Assembly: GCA_964645485.1 (NCBI GenBank)
Contig: CAZXZO010000018.1
Location: 17,723 to 41,497 of the forward strand
Length of the DNA: 23,775 bases
Origin: an uncultured Candidatus Poseidoniales archaeon
GTDB taxonomy: Archaea; Thermoplasmatota; Poseidoniia; Poseidoniales; Thalassarchaeaceae
Reading direction: 5' to 3'
In this document: positions 373 to 23,547 of the stretch, one piece after another
How positions within the stretch are numbered: position 1 is the first letter of the stretch
Layout of the letters: every line of letters starts with the position of its first letter
The notes under the pieces: generated by a model
Databases searched by the model: none
Seen by the model: the letters and a program-made list of their open reading frames with translations, nothing else
Told to the model about the DNA's origin: nothing
Position numbers and translations under genes: made by a program

Positions 373-801
373 GTGGTGAACAACCTGACTGATGGCTTGG
401 ATGTACGACTCGCCCACGGTCGACATGTGTATCTTGACTATGTCAATTTTAATCCAAATGTTGAGGAAGTTGATACTTGGGTATTATCACTACTACGCTC
501 AAGTGTGAAAGAGTGTGGGGTCAAAGAAGTACACTCTCATTGTGAGGTTTTTGATGGGGTTGAAAGTCCCCCTGGATTTGCCGCGATTGTCCTAATCGAC
601 GAGAGCCACATCACCGCTCACTGTTATTATGAAAAAGGGTGGTTGGCAGTTGATGCTTTCACTTGTGGAACACATGACCCTAATGATTTGGCTGATGTTA
701 TCCATGCCAAACTAATTGCAAAGTGTGTGAACTTGAAATTAATGAATCGTAACGTAGTTGAGCGATTTCTTCACGATGATTTATCACAAAATAAGGAGTG
801 A
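373..801 (+). CDS. speD: Pyruvoyl-dependent decarboxylase proenzyme, class 1B S-adenosylmethionine decarboxylase family (substrate uncertain)
   Basis: GRHVYLD N-terminus, self-cleavage motif IDE/SHITAH, and AVDAFTCG with the conserved Cys; 142 aa is typical of the family. Confidence 0.85.
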   Translation: MVNNLTDGLDVRLAHGRHVYLDYVNFNPNVEEVDTWVLSLLRSSVKECGVKEVHSHCEVFDGVESPPGFAAIVLIDESHITAHCYYEKGWLAVDAFTCGTHDPNDLADVIHAKLIAKCVNLKLMNRNVVERFLHDDLSQNKE

Positions 802-805
802 TTTT

Positions 806-1768
806 GTGTCTGGTGTACGTCAATTTATTGACCATAATTATCATCATTTCAATGCCGGGGCGTTAGCCGATTGTACCCGATCACTTGAGGAATTTCTGGA
901 CAAGGGTGGAAAATTAATTGTGACTTTAGCAGGTGCCATGTCAACTGCTGAAATCGGGCGCTCTTTGGCACCTGCAATCCGTGCTGGTTTAGTCCACGCT
1001 ATCTCATGTACAGGCGCAAATTTAGAAGAAGATTTGTTTAATTTAGTGGCTCATAATTCATACAAAAAGGTTGATTGGCGAAATCTAAGCGCTGAGGATG
1101 AATTGCAATTACAAAAGCAAGGTTTGAATCGAGTTACTGACACTTGTATCCCAGAGGCAGAGGCTATTCGTGTTGTAGAAAGTGCTCTTTTACAACAGTG
1201 GTTAACTGCAGAAAAAAATCAGGATACGAATCCACCCCACCAATATTTATTTGACATTCTCAATTCTGAAAATTTTGAATTTCAAGCCGACCCGAACACA
1301 AGTTGGCTGATAGCTGCTGTAGAAATGCAAATTCCGATTTTCACACCTGCTTGGGCGGATAGCACATTGGGGAATATTTTCTCTGCTCGACTAATTGATG
1401 GAACCCTCTCCAGCGACAATATTATCACAACAGATTTGGCAAGGATGGGTGACATTTCTTCTTGGTATCAAGAACAAGAATCGAAAATAGGTATTTTGCA
1501 GGTTGGTGGTGGTGTTGCTGGAGATTTCCCCGTTTGTGTGGTACCAATGTTGCGCCAAGATCTTGGAGAAGATGTTAATTTATGGGGGTGGTTCGCCCAA
1601 ATTTCTGAATCAACGCCATCTTATGGTGGTTATTCTGGCGCACCACCCAATGAGAAAATTAGTTGGGAAAAATTAGGAGTTAAAACTCCAAAATTTGTAA
1701 TTGAATCTGATGCAACTATTGTGTTACCATTAATTTTAGCGTACCTTATGGAAGGTTTAGAAAAATAA
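806..1768 (+). CDS. Deoxyhypusine synthase-like protein, bacterial (Bacteroidota-like) subtype; possible homospermidine synthase
   Basis: Motifs HFNAGAL, TLAGAMSTAE, SCTGANLEEDLFNLVAH, NRVTDTCIPE, QVGGGVAGDFPVCVVPML and GAPPNEKISWEKL (catalytic Lys position kept). Start moved from TTG 758 to GTG 806 because SD AAGGAG at 793-798 overlaps the speD stop. Confidence 0.9.
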   Translation: MSGVRQFIDHNYHHFNAGALADCTRSLEEFLDKGGKLIVTLAGAMSTAEIGRSLAPAIRAGLVHAISCTGANLEEDLFNLVAHNSYKKVDWRNLSAEDELQLQKQGLNRVTDTCIPEAEAIRVVESALLQQWLTAEKNQDTNPPHQYLFDILNSENFEFQADPNTSWLIAAVEMQIPIFTPAWADSTLGNIFSARLIDGTLSSDNIITTDLARMGDISSWYQEQESKIGILQVGGGVAGDFPVCVVPMLRQDLGEDVNLWGWFAQISESTPSYGGYSGAPPNEKISWEKLGVKTPKFVIESDATIVLPLILAYLMEGLEK

Positions 1769-1863
1769 ACTCTCCTTTTATCTCACTTTGAATACGAGTT
1801 TCCGTTTGTTGGCGGGATGTTTCCGGATTCCGAACACTTATGGTCCCCATAGCAGCCGGGAAA

Positions 1864-2664
1864 ATGATGACAGATTGGGATAGACGCAAGCGGTCGGCCG
1901 TACTCGTTCGCGAAATATCTCCAAATTTCACCAAGGCTTTAGCAAAATTTTTTGGTTCCGGACCAACTGATATTGAAGCCTCAATTAAAACCCATGACAA
2001 TTATATTGGGGTTCTTGAAGAAAATGGTTTGGAAGTGATCATCCTTCCTGGATTAGAAAACCATCCAGACTGTTGTTTTGTTGAAGATGCTGCTGTCATA
2101 ATAGATGGGGCCGCGGTAATCTGTAATCTTGGACATCCAAGTCGGCGTGGTGAGGCAGTAAGTGTTGCTGAATCTCTTTCTCAACATTTGGAGATAATAT
2201 TTATGCCAGAAAATGCAAATTTGGATGGTGGGGATGTTGTCTTTTACGACGATTATTTTCTAATCGGGCGTTCCACTAGAACAAATGAAGATGGGGTCAA
2301 ATTTATTGAGAATGTTTGCCATGACAGAGGATTCAAAACTTTTGTTTTTGACATCCCAGAAACAACACTTCATCTTTCAACAATTTGTTCTTCACCGGCC
2401 CCAGGAATATTAGTTACTGCAGAGGGACACTTGCAGCCAGAGCAATTTGATGGTCTTGATGCAGAAATTATTTGGGTACCTAATGATGAATCATATGCAG
2501 CAAACACAATTGGCTTTGAAAATGGCTGTGTAATCATTTCAGATAGTTACCCAAAAACTGCCGAATTGATGTCCCAACATGGATTCAATGTTACATGTGT
2601 TAATATGGAACACATCCGTTGTGCTGATGGTTCGCTCACTTGTTTACGGCTATTTTTCAAGTGA
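1864..2664 (+). CDS. Dimethylarginine dimethylaminohydrolase-like enzyme (amidinotransferase/pentein superfamily)
   Basis: HPDCCFVEDAAV, RRGE, LDGGDV, LHLSTI and DGSLTC give the Asp/Glu-His-Cys catalytic set of DDAH; start probably ATG 1864 or 1867. Confidence 0.85.
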   Translation: MMTDWDRRKRSAVLVREISPNFTKALAKFFGSGPTDIEASIKTHDNYIGVLEENGLEVIILPGLENHPDCCFVEDAAVIIDGAAVICNLGHPSRRGEAVSVAESLSQHLEIIFMPENANLDGGDVVFYDDYFLIGRSTRTNEDGVKFIENVCHDRGFKTFVFDIPETTLHLSTICSSPAPGILVTAEGHLQPEQFDGLDAEIIWVPNDESYAANTIGFENGCVIISDSYPKTAELMSQHGFNVTCVNMEHIRCADGSLTCLRLFFK

Positions 2665-18821: not shown

Positions 18822-19985
18822 TCAATCAAGTTCATCAATATCTTTCAAAGCCGGAGCGGCAGAACCACCCGGCGCACTTCCAACACCAGGTTCTAGAATT
18901 GTATCATCCTCTTCTTTCCCCAAAACATCTCGTCTTGCTTTGGTTTGTTCATGTGCTCTCAAAACACCCAGAGAATCTTGGAATGCCCCACTAACGACTC
19001 CCCTTGTTCTTTCTGATTTACGTAAGCCATCAACCTCAGCAGCCATTCTTTCATGTACTTCTTCTAAACTCTTTAACTCAGCAGTTCGGTCTGATAAACC
19101 ACCTTCAATATCACTGATGGTTAGCTGCATTTGTTGGATTCTTTCGTCTCTTTCAAATACGTCTCTATGTAATCTTCTCTCTCTTCTTCGTAGAGCCTCA
19201 TATTCTCTATTTCTCTCAAGTAATCTACGTTTTAATTCTTCAATTTGTTCGACAAGGTAATCATGTTCTGCGGAAATAGAACGTGGCCCGTCCATCATTC
19301 TCTGCATTTGCCCATCTAACTCTTTGAGGCGAAGATCCCTTTGTTCAAGCAAAGATTTTGTTTGAGTTACCATTTCTCGAAGTTTGTCTCTTTCTTCTGA
19401 AACAGTATTATTTTCAATCTGTTCTGCTTCTATTTTCCGATGAGCATCTTCCAGTTCACGGTTCAAATTTCGGACTTCATCAGCAGTGATTGAAGTTAAA
19501 CCCGCTTCCGCTGCTTTCTCCAATGCCTCTACCAATTGGTCTAACTTTCCTTCTAATTCACCTATGATGTTTGCTTGTGATTCAACTTTTTCTGAAAGTT
19601 GACCCTCATTACGTTCTAATTCATCTATTCTAATTGCTCCGACAGAGTTAGAAATCGCTTCTTTTTCTCTTTTTATGTCATCAAGCATTCTTTCAAGATG
19701 GATAATTCTTGCTTCCCGTTCCCGTAAATCCTCATCTAATTTCATCAATCGTGCCCTATCGGGCGCGCCCAATTCCTCGCGTTCTGATAAATCGAGTTCC
19801 ATAACCCGGTTTCTTTGATTTGAACTTGCTAATTCTTTGTTTGCCGAAGCCAACTCTTCCCAGGCAGTAATTACTTCATCAACAAGTTGTTCTTGTCCAT
19901 ATCCTGACAACATACCTGCCAGTGCAGCGCGGTCCACATCATCTCTAGAAGTGGCTTTTCCATTAGTGGTCTCAGCTCGCCCCAT
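18822..19985 (-). CDS. Long coiled-coil protein with short head and acidic, Gly/Pro-rich tail
   Basis: E/R/L/K-rich heptad-like sequence over ~280 aa; no Walker motif or TM segment visible; start ATG 19985 or TTG 19991. Confidence 0.85.
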   Translation of the reverse strand: MGRAETTNGKATSRDDVDRAALAGMLSGYGQEQLVDEVITAWEELASANKELASSNQRNRVMELDLSEREELGAPDRARLMKLDEDLREREARIIHLERMLDDIKREKEAISNSVGAIRIDELERNEGQLSEKVESQANIIGELEGKLDQLVEALEKAAEAGLTSITADEVRNLNRELEDAHRKIEAEQIENNTVSEERDKLREMVTQTKSLLEQRDLRLKELDGQMQRMMDGPRSISAEHDYLVEQIEELKRRLLERNREYEALRRRERRLHRDVFERDERIQQMQLTISDIEGGLSDRTAELKSLEEVHERMAAEVDGLRKSERTRGVVSGAFQDSLGVLRAHEQTKARRDVLGKEEDDTILEPGVGSAPGGSAAPALKDIDELD

Positions 19986-20015
19986 GCTCAATCAAACACC
20001 CTATCGCAAGAGGAC

Positions 20016-20066
20016 CATTCTTGAACCTTCACCTTGTCACTAGTCAAAGCAAGTCATTCTTGAACC
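20016..20066 (-). repeat. 12-bp direct repeat CATTCTTGAACC (20016-20027, 20055-20066); possible tandem promoter or operator
   Basis: Both copies read directly in the 100-bp gap between the actin stop and the coiled-coil start. Confidence 0.6.
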
Positions 20067-20090: not shown

Positions 20091-21095
20091 TCAACTAATT
20101 GCAGTGTACTGGTCATCAGGCATTACCATTGACAGTTTTAATGCCCCATCTGCAACTCTTGCCATTGGATCATCAGCACACCAAACACGAACATCACCAA
20201 TATCTGCTAGTTCATCAGCCACACGGTCTGCCAAACCATCGATTAAGGAGCCGCCACCTGAAAGAATTATGTTATTTCGTAGCAATGATTGATACTCTGG
20301 GTCAGCATCAGAAACAATTCCTTTTATTGTCCTTACGAGATGAGGAACTAACTCCTCACAAGCGATTTGAATCAAGTCGCCGACATCAACAACTTGCTTC
20401 TTTCCATCTACTGAAAGTTCGACCATCTGTTCTTTTTCATCTCCACCAACATATGAACCCGCTTCTTTCCATTGACGGACCATGTCTTTTGTTAGTTGAG
20501 CACCTGTGAATTTCTTTGCAACTAATTCCATTAATCGCTCATCAATCCAATCTCCAGCTTCGCTGATTGTAACTTGGTCATCTTCACTAGGGAATGTACC
20601 GTAGATTCGAGCAACATCGGTTGTACCTGCACCAATATCAACAACAATACTACCACCAATTTCATCAAGACCAAATGCGACTGCAAATGGTTCGCTAACA
20701 ACCATAATTGCATTTACCTGGCCTCTTAGAACGCTGACCAAATTACTCTTGTCAACGAATGAAATGTGAGATGGTGAGCATATTACACCGAAAACCTCGT
20801 CGTATTCTTCAGGGTCAACCGCTTCAACCAAGTGTGTCACAAACGATTTTGCTGCTGCCAAATTATTTTCATCATCTTGGGCAACTCCTGCTGAAAGTGG
20901 ATAATATAGATTACATGCTAATTTATTTTTCAGCGCATCTCCGCCAAACAAGGTATCTCTTTTCAAGAAATTACGAGCGATAGGATCCTTAGGTTTTCCA
21001 ACCACTGTTAATACACTTTCATTCGTTCCATTCGACGCAGCAATTGTCGATTGAAATGTTCCTAAATCTATTCCGATGTACAGTCTTTCACTCAT
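20091..21095 (-). CDS. Actin-fold ATPase of the MamK/salactin type
   Basis: Phosphate-1 GIDLGT, connect-1 VSEPFAVA, phosphate-2 VDIGAGTTD, adenosine LSGGGSLIDGL; SD AGGTGA (21101-21106) supports ATG 21095. Confidence 0.92.
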   Translation of the reverse strand: MSERLYIGIDLGTFQSTIAASNGTNESVLTVVGKPKDPIARNFLKRDTLFGGDALKNKLACNLYYPLSAGVAQDDENNLAAAKSFVTHLVEAVDPEEYDEVFGVICSPSHISFVDKSNLVSVLRGQVNAIMVVSEPFAVAFGLDEIGGSIVVDIGAGTTDVARIYGTFPSEDDQVTISEAGDWIDERLMELVAKKFTGAQLTKDMVRQWKEAGSYVGGDEKEQMVELSVDGKKQVVDVGDLIQIACEELVPHLVRTIKGIVSDADPEYQSLLRNNIILSGGGSLIDGLADRVADELADIGDVRVWCADDPMARVADGALKLSMVMPDDQYTAIS

Positions 21096-23547
21096 AGTCG
21101 TCACCTACACGCGGTGCTACCGCTATCGGCAGGGAGTCGCTATCATGGTTTGAAGGTTCACCTTCGGTAATAATTTCATCAACCACTATTTGAGAAGAAA
21201 TTTTATGCCTCTCAACTAGGATTAATCCAGCTGAAATTAATATTATTATAGCCATCATAATGAACCAATATTTACCTAGAGAATCGTCACCCTGCTCCCC
21301 ATTTCCATTCTCATTTAGGGATACTACTAACCACGGGGTGCTTGTTTCAACAGAACTTCTCTCAACACCCTTCACCGCTAATGCAAATCCAATTCTATCA
21401 CCATTCAACCCAACTCCACCTTTCTCAGGCCCGATGTTTATTTGATGAGCGAGAATTTGAACTTCAACAAATCCAATTCCATCAAGATTTGCCGACGGAA
21501 TATGGACGCCTTCGATAGTCTCAATATTTTCTTTCACCCCTTCTCCAGTCATATCATTGCCTAAGAAGATTTGACCATCAGGTAAAGTTACGACGAGATC
21601 TAAATCATCGCGTGAATCAATATTAGGGGCAGAGTTCCAAACAAGCCTAACATCGAAATCAACACCAGGAACAATTGGCATTTTCCAAACCACACTTTCT
21701 GATGATGACAAGAATGGCCCAGCAGCCCCTGCTCCTCCCCAATTATGATTAGAGACTGAATCAAGCGGGTTTTCATCAACCCAATCATCAATCATACTTT
21801 TCCAGTTGTTGTCAATCAATTGGAATGAATCATGTATCCAAATATTTGCTGATGGGTCAACTGTAGAATTATTCATTTGGTTATTGATATAAGCAAAATC
21901 AACTAGGTTGGATAGATTTGGCCGCCCCCATCCTTGTTGGTTATCTGGTGCTACCCCAAGGGTCAACTCTGCTTGCCGCCCTCCTTCAAGTGAGTTAGCA
22001 CTCAATACCATCAACGCCCTGATAAGTGGGCCTGACGGAGTAAACCCTTGAGCCAAAGAGAGATTTCCTTCACTCAAATTTCCTTCAACCGATTCTGCCC
22101 AATCAGGCCTTAATGAATTCGAAGAAACAATATTTTTGCTTTCATTTCCTCCAACCCAACCATCTTCCACCATTTGTTGTATAACAGCAGCGAATGCTGC
22201 TGCTTGTGGAGTCGCCATCGAAGTTCCCGTCGAACTCTTCCAGCCATCATTATTAGAATCATGAACACCATCTCCTTTAGCCGAAATCACTGTTTCGCCA
22301 GGGACAACAATAGTGACTCCCAATCTCCCTTGAGCAGTTTCTTGTCTTGGAGAGAGAGTCCACAAATCATCAGTCCCATCTTTAGCGGCGGCACCAACAG
22401 AAACAACATTCAATCCATTTGCAGGTTCCAAAACCTCATCTCCCGTGTTTCCCGGAGCAACAAAAGAAACCGACCAAGGTACTGAAAATAACCAAGTATC
22501 AAATTTACTTGTCCGAAGCGTGTATTCTGTACTATCATCCCCCCAAGAATCTGAGCGTATTACACTACCATGTGAACTAGCTTCCCAAAATAATTCACCA
22601 ATATCGGGTATTTGCCAACCATCATCATCTACAACATCTTCAATCACCAGACGAGCCCCATGGGCAATTGAAGTTCCTTCTCCAGGAGTTGCGTTTGTCC
22701 AATCACCATTTCTTTCTGAGGAAACTTCCCAAATTGAACGACAAGCCAAACTCCCCGCTATGTGAGTTCCATGTTGATAATTTTGATTATTTGGTGAATC
22801 CCAATCATCTATTGTTCCATTGAAATAAACAATTTTTCTATGATTTATCCCCGGTGTGCCTGTTGCATTATTCCATTCACTTCCTGAAGCCCCTGGTTCA
22901 GTAGCCTCACGGAAGCAAGCATGGTCGCGGTCAATTCCTGAATCCGCGTTAGTAATTATTACTCCAGTTCCATCCAATCCAAACAACCAAGCGGGTTGCC
23001 CAGTAACATTTCCGTGTTGCATTATTGCTGCCGCAACATCATTTCTTCCCACTGTTTCTAGCACCGGTTCAACCCAATGTATGCCGTGTATAATTTCAAC
23101 AAATTGCCACCAATTTTCAAAATCATTACTTGGTGTGATTTGAATTATTTCCGAGAGAGGTGATCCCTGCATCGGTGAGAAAATTGTAATTGGATTCAAA
23201 CCAATCATATTCAAGACAGTTTTAATTTCCTCCTTTTCATTCACTTCTAATCTTGGTTCAAGAATAACGATGTAATTTTGATATTCATCATTCAAACCCC
23301 TATATTCAGCAATTTTTTGGGGTATTTCATCTTTATCAATAGGTCCCCAGACTAGCATTTCATTAGCACTTAATTGACGTAAAGGAATAAATCCCTCTTC
23401 CACTAAATCGTGCCAATTATCTACATCCAATGGGGTATCAGACTGAAATATTACTTCGCCAAATTCTTGTTGTTCAGTATGTGGCATTGGTGGAAGTGGG
23501 AATATGAAAAACACTGCAAGAAAAACAACACTAGCCCCCCTCGCCAT
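21088..23547 (-). CDS. Secreted, C-terminally membrane-anchored S8 subtilisin-like protease (Kp43-like)
   Basis: N-terminal hydrophobic signal; triad ADSGID / HGTHIAGS / GTSMATP, oxyanion APGN; LVWN...DDLDLVV C-terminal domain; TM helix YWFIMMAIIILISAGLILV; SD GGAGGTGA at 23555-23562. Confidence 0.93.
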   Translation of the reverse strand: MARGASVVFLAVFFIFPLPPMPHTEQQEFGEVIFQSDTPLDVDNWHDLVEEGFIPLRQLSANEMLVWGPIDKDEIPQKIAEYRGLNDEYQNYIVILEPRLEVNEKEEIKTVLNMIGLNPITIFSPMQGSPLSEIIQITPSNDFENWWQFVEIIHGIHWVEPVLETVGRNDVAAAIMQHGNVTGQPAWLFGLDGTGVIITNADSGIDRDHACFREATEPGASGSEWNNATGTPGINHRKIVYFNGTIDDWDSPNNQNYQHGTHIAGSLACRSIWEVSSERNGDWTNATPGEGTSIAHGARLVIEDVVDDDGWQIPDIGELFWEASSHGSVIRSDSWGDDSTEYTLRTSKFDTWLFSVPWSVSFVAPGNTGDEVLEPANGLNVVSVGAAAKDGTDDLWTLSPRQETAQGRLGVTIVVPGETVISAKGDGVHDSNNDGWKSSTGTSMATPQAAAFAAVIQQMVEDGWVGGNESKNIVSSNSLRPDWAESVEGNLSEGNLSLAQGFTPSGPLIRALMVLSANSLEGGRQAELTLGVAPDNQQGWGRPNLSNLVDFAYINNQMNNSTVDPSANIWIHDSFQLIDNNWKSMIDDWVDENPLDSVSNHNWGGAGAAGPFLSSSESVVWKMPIVPGVDFDVRLVWNSAPNIDSRDDLDLVVTLPDGQIFLGNDMTGEGVKENIETIEGVHIPSANLDGIGFVEVQILAHQINIGPEKGGVGLNGDRIGFALAVKGVERSSVETSTPWLVVSLNENGNGEQGDDSLGKYWFIMMAIIILISAGLILVERHKISSQIVVDEIITEGEPSNHDSDSLPIAVAPRVGDDYE

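Follow-up and report, generated by a model that had tools for sequence, protein, structure and literature searches.

The stretch of DNA analysed here (the window, 23,775 nucleotides (nt)) lies on contig 18 of a metagenome-assembled genome of the Poseidoniales (Marine Group II archaea), an assembly of 1.94 Mb that is 82% complete. Its minus strand carries, one after another, genes for a membrane-anchored S8 subtilase (21088..23547), a 334-residue actin-fold ATPase (20091..21095), hereafter actin B, and a 387-residue coiled-coil protein (18822..19985, read from the ATG at 19985; the list of open reading frames (ORFs) has a TTG start at 19991), and the gene for GGGPS lies beyond them on the opposite strand. 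Actin B, the gene under study, is by its sequence and predicted fold a MamK-like actin, and neither MreB, nor salactin, nor a magnetosomal protein. The ORF list begins it with a GTG (20091..21104, minus strand), three codons upstream of an ATG at 21095. This ATG is the likely start, and 20091-21095 the likely extent of the gene, because a Shine-Dalgarno-like GGTGA (21101..21105, minus strand, within the S8 coding sequence) was read directly 5 nt 5' of it and because the homologs in databases are mostly 334 residues long; the same GGTGA precedes the actin start at other loci as well.

Family identity of actin B

When protein chains of the PDB were searched with phmmer, the three best matches of actin B were MamK structures (5jyg, 5ljv and 5ljw; E 1.5e-65, 225 bits), aligned in a single co-linear stretch (residues 3-328 of actin B with 10-336 of MamK), followed by the BeeR structure 8r2n (E 1e-37), MreB (1e-13) and eukaryotic actins (about 1e-7). 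A BLASTP comparison with MamK of Magnetospirillum sp. UT-4 gave 38% identity over 330 residues with two gaps (E 2e-75), a degree of sequence similarity far beyond chance. The preliminary description of this DNA, made from its letters, had proposed co-linear similarity to MamK on the basis of short blocks, every one of which was recovered in the alignment (actin B/MamK): VVGKPKDPI/VVGYPKDVI, YPLSAGV/YPLQDGV, VVSEPFAVAFGLD/VVSEPFMVGYGLD, the identical VDIGAGTTD, GTFPSEDDQVT..AGDWIDERL/GTVPGPEDQVT..AGNYVDERL, ACEELVP/ACEALMP, PEYQ, GGGS and GALKL/GALRL. It was also right that the signatures of MreB are lacking, DLGTFQS and SEPFAVAFG standing in place of GTAN and EEPMAAAIG.

The NCBIfam model of MamK (NF040964) matches actin B with 337.2 bits over profile positions 1-329 of 335; for comparison, a second actin of the same genome (actin A, described below) scores 368 bits and one canonical representative 508 bits. 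The BeeR model (NF053558) gives 207 bits against a cut-off of 530, and the salactin model (NF053533) 46 bits against a cut-off of 400, values at which neither family claims the protein. Models of ParM (16.8 bits), crenactin (16.2 bits) and DnaK/HscA (18-24 bits) likewise stay below family level (cut-offs of 417-822), and no Hsp70 or sugar-kinase model exceeds 25 bits. The Pfam family Salactin (PF25229) passes its gathering score (27.1) with 39.6 bits, yet MreB_Mbl scores higher (81.9 bits). Actin B begins 4 residues ahead of its first strand, and is therefore without an N-terminal tail of the salactin type. The preliminary description had placed the protein in a MamK/salactin clade: the MamK part of this placement is borne out by the profile score, whereas closeness to salactin is not, given the low score on the salactin model, the missing charged tail and a set of relatives that are of MamK or BeeR type. 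Its background statement that salactin is itself related to MamK agrees with the literature, in which MamK is the nearest subfamily of salactin (PMC10746226).

An AlphaFold2 model of actin B built from a 41-sequence alignment (mean predicted local distance difference test (pLDDT) score 92, predicted template modelling (pTM) score 0.88) finds as its best Foldseek match the filament-state MamK subunit 5ljv_A (template modelling (TM) score 0.94/0.96, root-mean-square deviation 1.4 A), ahead of BeeR (TM 0.90) and of MreB and the actins (about 0.80). The ATP-binding motifs of the actin superfamily (phosphate 1, connect 1 xEPx, phosphate 2 DxGxG, adenosine GG and connect 2; PMC10653835) are all five intact in the alignments of actin B, with DLGT as phosphate 1, SEPF as connect 1, VDIGAGTTD as phosphate 2, SGGGS as the adenosine motif and the G in DGALKL as connect 2. 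The column of MamK A278, at which the change A278D gives the non-polymerising mutant of 5ljw, holds S270 in actin B and an aspartate in actin A; across the family it is occupied by D, E, N, Q, S or P and is uninformative on polymerisation.

Phylogeny and breadth of the MamK-like family

A tree of 87 sequences was computed with IQ-TREE under a careful search setting and rooted on five bacterial MreB proteins, with MamK of named magnetotactic bacteria, MamK-like proteins of named non-magnetic bacteria and BeeR-like representatives labelled by NCBIfam as anchors. MreB is set apart from everything else (support 100/100), the BeeR-like sequences form a separate clade that is the first branch within the family (96/99), and the clade of magnetosome MamK (Magnetospirillum, Magnetococcus, Nitrospirota and others; 99/100) leaves out the archaeal proteins. 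The Poseidoniales sequences fall into two clades, A and B, each monophyletic (100/100) and sister to the other (100/97, and 99/98 in a second tree). The sister of A and B together is a clade of KSB1-type bacterial proteins (98/92), and the wider group that adds ANME-2 and other Thermoplasmatota is weakly supported (81/86). Long stem branches (0.6-0.8) lead to A and to B, with little divergence within either copy. Judged from these sequences, actin B falls within a broad MamK-like radiation and outside the magnetosome MamK clade, and the tree joins the profile scores, the PDB matches and the Foldseek ranking in setting it apart from MreB, ParM, crenactin and Hsp70-like proteins, as the preliminary description had expected.

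The surroundings of the gene agree with an archaeal, non-magnetosome context, which had also been proposed. The closest homologs of actin B carry the names Candidatus Thalassarchaeaceae, Candidatus Poseidoniales or marine group II; the ORFs of the window include no mam gene; and the source genome, at its 82% completeness, yielded neither MamI nor MamP in a marker search that did recover MamI from Magnetospirillum sp. UT-4 and from a Magnetococcus genome used as positive controls.

Public records label the homologs of actin B as rod shape-determining protein MreB, because Pfam has no MamK family and MreB_Mbl is the Pfam family with the best score (about 82 bits). If the label were correct, actin B would be a rod-shape protein of the MreB type that guides envelope synthesis. 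Set against the Pfam score and the records, the NCBIfam models of MreB (TIGR00904 and PRK13927) yield 69 and 79 bits for cut-offs of 366 and 293, the MreB sequences lie across the branch with 100/100 support, the structural match to MreB (TM about 0.80) is inferior to that with MamK (0.94), neither mreC nor mreD is among the window ORFs (again as first described), and Poseidoniales have, to our knowledge, no murein wall for MreB to guide. Membership of the MreB family is already contradicted by these results, and the reading as a whole is highly improbable; a role in cell shape as such is a different matter and is kept among the candidates discussed below.

An exhaustive search of 1.84 billion representative proteins returned only 123 clusters below E 1e-30. 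Among the 150 best representatives, the labelled relatives all score best on the MamK or BeeR models, and named members of the family come from Nitrospira, Gemmatimonadota, Planctomycetota, Rokubacteria, KSB1 and ANME-2 archaea. MamK-like actins are thus widespread beyond magnetotactic bacteria, since named non-magnetic bacteria and archaea carry them; that MamK has relatives outside the magnetotactic bacteria was already stated in the description of BeeR (PMC11929497).

Seven more Thermoplasmatota with large genomes possess copies, four of which score above the cut-off of the MamK model. At three loci of such large-genome Thermoplasmatota (L033:2700-3992, L034:91-1380 and L035:1-1329), the gene downstream of a MamK-family actin, which at 424-435 bits exceeds the cut-off, encodes a conserved protein of about 430 residues without a Pfam family. 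Homology of this protein to the coiled-coil partner in Poseidoniales was considered and rejected (hhalign probability 0.1%). In another Thermoplasmatota family (code f19; L038:528-3698 and L039:30-3539), a chemotaxis cluster encloses the gene of the MamK-like actin, with cheD directly upstream, cheC and a CheA/CheW-type gene near, and a gene for a conserved uncharacterised protein of 318-341 residues downstream.

The members of the KSB1-type sister clade, of which one fusion protein comes from a KSB1 bacterium, are 500-1230 residues long; in each, a conserved coiled coil at the N-terminus is joined by a long disordered linker to a MamK-family actin at the C-terminus. In two KSB1-type gene clusters (L152:4864-13315 and L153:7001-13322), the gene of the fused actin precedes that of a second, short MamK-family actin, which exceeds the cut-off with 429 bits; next come a PatA_N/Roadblock gene, a further two of Roadblock/LC7 type and one for an Arf/Ras-like GTPase, and the whole looks like an uncharacterised actin plus an MglA/MglB-like polarity module. 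The short actins of the bacteria branch within the clade of fusion proteins, and the Poseidoniales copies are sisters (99/98), so the bacterial duplication is independent of the archaeal one, and a joint transfer of the Poseidoniales pair with the bacterial tandem pair was rejected. It is suggestive that coiled coils accompany this actin lineage more than once.

Two paralogs and their loss in streamlined genera

The second copy, actin A (L001:1486-2508), was located on contig 7 of the same genome by a search with the MamK model, and is 46% identical to actin B. Among 121 Poseidoniales genomes the family was found in 76, nearly always as two copies: in 59 of 59 genomes of one taxonomic family (f3), 2 of 2 of another (f2) and 14 of 59 of the source genome's own (f1). 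Both the A and the B clade hold members of all three of these families, and the duplication must therefore predate their split. Across the order, actin B is 66-90% identical to the copy in the window, compared with 43-69% for the neighbouring GGGPS; at the level of sequence, it is under strong purifying selection. Actin A has a constant companion of its own, a same-strand gene that precedes it at 29 of 29 loci and encodes a 349-residue protein with a zinc ribbon at each end; a membrane protein encoded downstream is a less constant neighbour. One genome (G004) contains two complete protease/actin B/coiled-coil/GGGPS loci (L053 and L054), the actins of which fall in different parts of the B clade; with an estimated contamination of 6%, a mixed bin is more likely than a real duplication.

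In seven genera of the source family, whose genomes measure 1.2-1.7 Mb, both actin copies are missing (0 of 43 genomes), and neither a full-length coiled-coil gene nor an S8 ortholog was found in these genera. The A and B modules are at different loci and yet vanish from the same lineages; the system is dispensable, as these streamlined Thalassarchaeaceae genera have lost both modules. Five of the streamlined genomes have, at the syntenic site next to the GGGPS gene, an intact ORF of about 160 residues (L060:7952-8446, L061:7970-8458, L062:7926-8393, L063:7993-8487 and L064:8016-8516), which corresponds to the first helix of the coiled-coil protein, with 33-35% identity, and may either have a function of its own or be a slowly decaying remnant. 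A link of the actins to motility was rejected after comparison with archaellin (PF01917), the pattern of which in the same 121 genomes does not track them: three genera (g1-g3) have actins and no archaellin, and two others (g9 and g13) have archaellin and no actins.

The coiled-coil partner

At 20 of 20 loci, drawn from three families, one strand carries the genes of S8 protease, actin B and coiled-coil protein in this order, and the opposite strand GGGPS. No genome without actin B has a full-length ortholog of the coiled-coil protein (E 1e-96 or better on complete contigs), and such an ortholog, where present, always adjoins actin B; a run of five or more T (T5+ tract) is absent between the two genes at all 21 loci inspected. 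AlphaFold predicts three long helices (residues 31-161, 168-231 and 237-355) and a disordered acidic tail. The protein contains two invariant blocks, AGLTS and GPRSxSAEHDYLVEQ...RRRERRLHxDVFERDER, and the predicted helix breaks coincide with AGLTS and GPRS, so placed that a block of about 50 residues, at approximately 233-282 and invariant throughout the order, follows the second break. A generic coiled coil would not be expected to show conservation of this kind, and the invariant block is therefore a probable binding surface, by which the protein may bind the actin B filament.

Searches for relatives of this protein gave no Pfam match, no PDB match below E 0.26, and among NCBIfam models weak coiled-coil matches only, the best being SMC (32.5 bits against a cut-off of 567). 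A feature-based search found only generic crescentin-like coiled coils (0.92), which is no more than a lead. Homology of the archaeal partner to the coiled coil that is fused to the bacterial sister actins was rejected (hhalign probability 1.8%).

A palindromic motif shared by both genes

A palindromic motif, GTGAACCTTCAA, was read directly 66 nt 5' of the actin start (21150..21161, minus strand), inside the 3' end of the S8 ORF, and its centre-inverted counterpart, GTGAAGGTTCAAG, upstream of the coiled-coil gene (20020..20032, minus strand). Of the two cores, TGAACCTTCA and TGAAGGTTCA, each is the reverse complement of the other: both are a TGAA-NN-TTCA palindrome, and they differ in the orientation of the centre. 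GGTTCAAGAATG is present once more, also read directly upstream of the coiled-coil gene (20055-20066, minus strand), 39 nt 5' of the copy within the palindrome, making a short direct repeat in the spacer. Of 21 Poseidoniales loci searched with up to one mismatch allowed, 16 have the motif 53-67 nt 5' of actin B, 9 have it ahead of the coiled-coil gene and none has it ahead of S8; at several other loci, a form with two mismatches, GGGAAAGTTCAAG or GCGAAAGTTCAAG, was noticed by eye before the coiled-coil gene. The hexamer ATAGGG is common about 20-30 nt before start codons in the source genome, and that of the coiled-coil gene (20004-19999) comes just past the palindrome. From its position beside ATAGGG, the palindrome would sit where a regulator site is expected. 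Because both genes carry a version of the palindrome (TGAA-SS-TTCA), they are probably switched together, under the control of one dimeric regulator that binds it. The wider pattern TGAASSTTSAA has 31 copies in the genome, and about 15 chance copies were estimated for the narrower TGAASSTTCA; a genome-wide regulon was rejected, the copy number being near chance and the copies mostly intragenic.

The same sites might instead be centromere-like, within a ParMRC-like or salactin-like DNA segregation machine in which the actin moves DNA and the downstream protein is the adaptor. An actin gene followed by that of a partner, with a repeated upstream site, resembles parC-parM-parR; the motif precedes both genes, with the additional GGTTCAAGAATG in the spacer; and salactin, a distant relative, affects DNA partitioning under low phosphate (PMC10746226). 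We nevertheless find a segregation machine distinctly unlikely: the partner is an all-helical rod of 387 residues with no recognisable DNA-binding domain and no relatives in Pfam or the PDB, the palindromes stand singly and not as iteron arrays, the locus is chromosomal and set amid housekeeping genes and is not part of a plasmid or provirus, and many healthy lineages of the same family live without the system. The link to DNA partitioning that the preliminary description drew from salactin finds no support in anything seen for actin B.

The S8 protease as a neighbour

The constant upstream neighbour of actin B is a subtilase (Peptidase_S8, 79.5 bits) whose membership of the system is doubtful. 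Its orthologs all have an N-terminal signal or transmembrane segment and a C-terminal transmembrane helix, and most have the D/H/S triad. In a three-gene transmembrane system, the actin B filament, together with the coiled-coil protein, would act from within the cell on the cytoplasmic tail of this extracellular, membrane-anchored protease and so position or cluster it. Such a system is suggested by the presence of S8 directly upstream on the same strand at 20 of 20 loci in three families, by the overlap of its stop codon with the actin start in the source genus (ATGAGTGA), by S8 orthologs in the six Thalassarchaeaceae genera that keep actin B as against none found in 36 genomes of the seven genera without it, and by a syntenic site at which S8 has been deleted along with the actin. 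However, a single deletion would take out adjacent genes regardless of function. The shared motif is missing upstream of S8 at the 21 loci, and in 18 of them S8 and actin are separated by a spacer of 69-181 nt, after which comes the actin's own motif. T5+ tracts are the kind of sequence that ends archaeal transcripts, and seven of these S8-actin spacers contain one. The tail that would have to contact the filament is 4-48 residues long after the C-terminal transmembrane helix and is unconserved, and the peptide EGEPSNH in the tail of the source genus is the translated regulatory motif. We therefore regard S8 as a long-standing neighbour, with a minority chance of belonging to the system, and a three-gene machine as unlikely.

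The S8 ORF in the source genus runs on through the actin regulatory region (window 21091-21165, minus strand), its last 25 or so codons being translated palindrome and spacer. The conservation of EGEPSNH reflects constraint on the DNA and not protein function.

Proposed function

On balance we consider it likely that actin B is a MamK-family actin that binds ATP and polymerises, that it is paired and co-regulated with the coiled-coil protein, and that the two make up one of two sister modules. Actin B would most likely assemble into cytoplasmic filaments, as is suggested by the predicted fold and by analogy with its relatives, and would work together with the order-specific, segmented coiled-coil protein encoded directly downstream, a rod-shaped partner that may bind along the filament, cap it or link it to cargo. 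A duplication in the ancestor of the Poseidoniales gave rise to actin A, at the zinc-ribbon locus, and actin B, at the coiled-coil locus, and the A and B modules together may constitute a two-module, lineage-specific cytoskeleton unconnected with magnetosomes. Our best guess at its role is the positioning or scaffolding of a large cellular structure, or the control of cell shape or size.

Several observations weigh against this interpretation. The 337 bits of actin B are below the cut-off of 400 for the MamK model NF040964; both Poseidoniales copies read DLGTF in phosphate 1, where the rest of the family reads DLGTS; and actin B has a cysteine in place of a near-invariant glycine (VICSP). The palindrome is not enriched genome-wide, about 15 copies being expected by chance and a similar number seen, and most copies are inside genes, so that the functional case for it comes from its conserved position only. 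Conserved adjacency in Poseidoniales extends to the unrelated housekeeping genes for GGGPS, beta-CASP nuclease and MoeA, for which reason synteny alone is weak evidence of a partnership. The co-loss of the two modules may reflect few events, because the streamlined genera may be one clade.

The unusual phosphate-1 motif could also point to a non-polymerising, enzyme-like or chaperone-like ATPase of MamK-like descent with the actin fold, and polymerisation itself is here a prediction, from the model and from analogy. This alternative is hardly credible, however: the closest characterised relatives, MamK and BeeR, both polymerise with ATP (PMC11929497, PMC5597319), the predicted fold is best fitted by the MamK subunit in its filament state, at the 1.4 A given above, and the Hsp70 and sugar-kinase models score so low. 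We thus retain the polymerising, partnered actin as the preferred interpretation. On present evidence, actin B is genuine and well conserved, a new addition to the MamK-like actin family from an archaeal order, and no new kind of system.

A more far-reaching scenario, which we put forward tentatively and think doubtful as a whole, is that most Marine Group II archaea have a private cytoskeleton of two filaments, one of actin A and a zinc-ribbon adaptor, the other of actin B and a rod like those of intermediate filaments, under a dedicated palindrome-binding regulator; this cytoskeleton would set shape or size or position a large structure, and its loss would mark streamlined ecotypes of the Thalassarchaeaceae. 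If true, its presence or absence would be an ecological trait in a highly abundant group of ocean archaea.

Few archaea of the surface ocean are as abundant as the Poseidoniales, and we know of no member in culture, for which reason their cell biology is almost unstudied. The preliminary description had called this actin little studied; full-text searches found no paper on MamK or MreB in Marine Group II or Poseidoniales, nor on archaeal MamK-like actins beyond the distant kinship of salactin. A strongly conserved pair of actins with dedicated partners offers an entry point to the cell biology of these archaea that can be expressed in other hosts, and the genera with and without the system are a natural experiment on the role of the filament. 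The interest of the system comes mainly from the organisms that carry it and from its dedicated partners. More generally, the MamK family emerges as a broad filament family, present in numerous bacteria that are not magnetic and in several lineages of archaea (ANME-2 and other Thermoplasmatota), and no speciality of magnetosomes, and a systematic misannotation as MreB in public records is exposed.

Other genes of the window

The remaining ORFs of the window resemble genes for SpeD, deoxyhypusine synthase, an M28 peptidase, PurQ, PurL, UvrA, MoeA, TauE and a beta-CASP nuclease, besides GGGPS. At one end (373-2664, plus strand), a SpeD-like pyruvoyl enzyme, a deoxyhypusine-synthase-like enzyme and a hydrolase resembling DDAH or arginine deiminase are encoded in the same orientation.

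Comparison with known systems

The known adaptors of MamK, the filaments of which have two unstaggered strands, are MamJ, MamY and McaA/McaB. MamK (5jyg, 5ljv, 5ljw; NF040964) is the best match of actin B in sequence, profile and fold, with 38% identity in a full-length co-linear alignment and the same ATP-binding motifs, and the gene of actin B also stands beside one for an acidic or coiled-coil protein that could be an adaptor. Actin B differs in falling outside the magnetosome clade and below the cut-off, in the absence of mam genes from the window and in its archaeal host, and its partner is unrelated to any known partner of MamK. The deep-branching magnetotactic bacteria that have both MamK and Mad28, together with coiled-coil Mad proteins (PMC12748827, PMC10653835), likewise possess two actin paralogs per genome and coiled-coil proteins. 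Mad28, however, is 15-17% identical to MamK and forms a clade of its own (PMC10653835), whereas the Poseidoniales copies are close sisters (46% identity) at separate loci with no organelle genes near.

Salactin of Haloarchaea (NF053533, PF25229) is, like actin B, archaeal, chromosomal and closest to the MamK subfamily (PMC10746226), but it is a protein of the Methanotecta and not of the Thermoplasmatota (PMC10746226), and actin B is without its charged, disordered N-terminal tail and scores 46 bits where 400 are needed. BeeR, the three-stranded tubular actin of Verrucomicrobiota (8r2n, PMC11929497), is similar to actin B in being related to MamK, in having a non-magnetotactic host and in that its function is not established, and it is the second-best PDB match (E 1e-37, TM 0.90); its hallmark N-terminal extension of 30-50 residues is absent from actin B, which scores 207 bits for a cut-off of 530, and the BeeR-like sequences form a clade apart.

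The KSB1-type fused actins (for example, MBN1348044.1) differ from the Poseidoniales system in that coiled coil and actin are parts of one protein, joined by a long disordered linker, with no homology of this coiled coil to the archaeal partner (hhalign probability 1.8%), and in having Roadblock/LC7 and Ras-like GTPase genes that are absent from the Poseidoniales locus. They are nonetheless the nearest clade outside the Poseidoniales, at 43-45% identity, and like the Poseidoniales actins they are linked to a coiled coil and duplicated, in their case in tandem.

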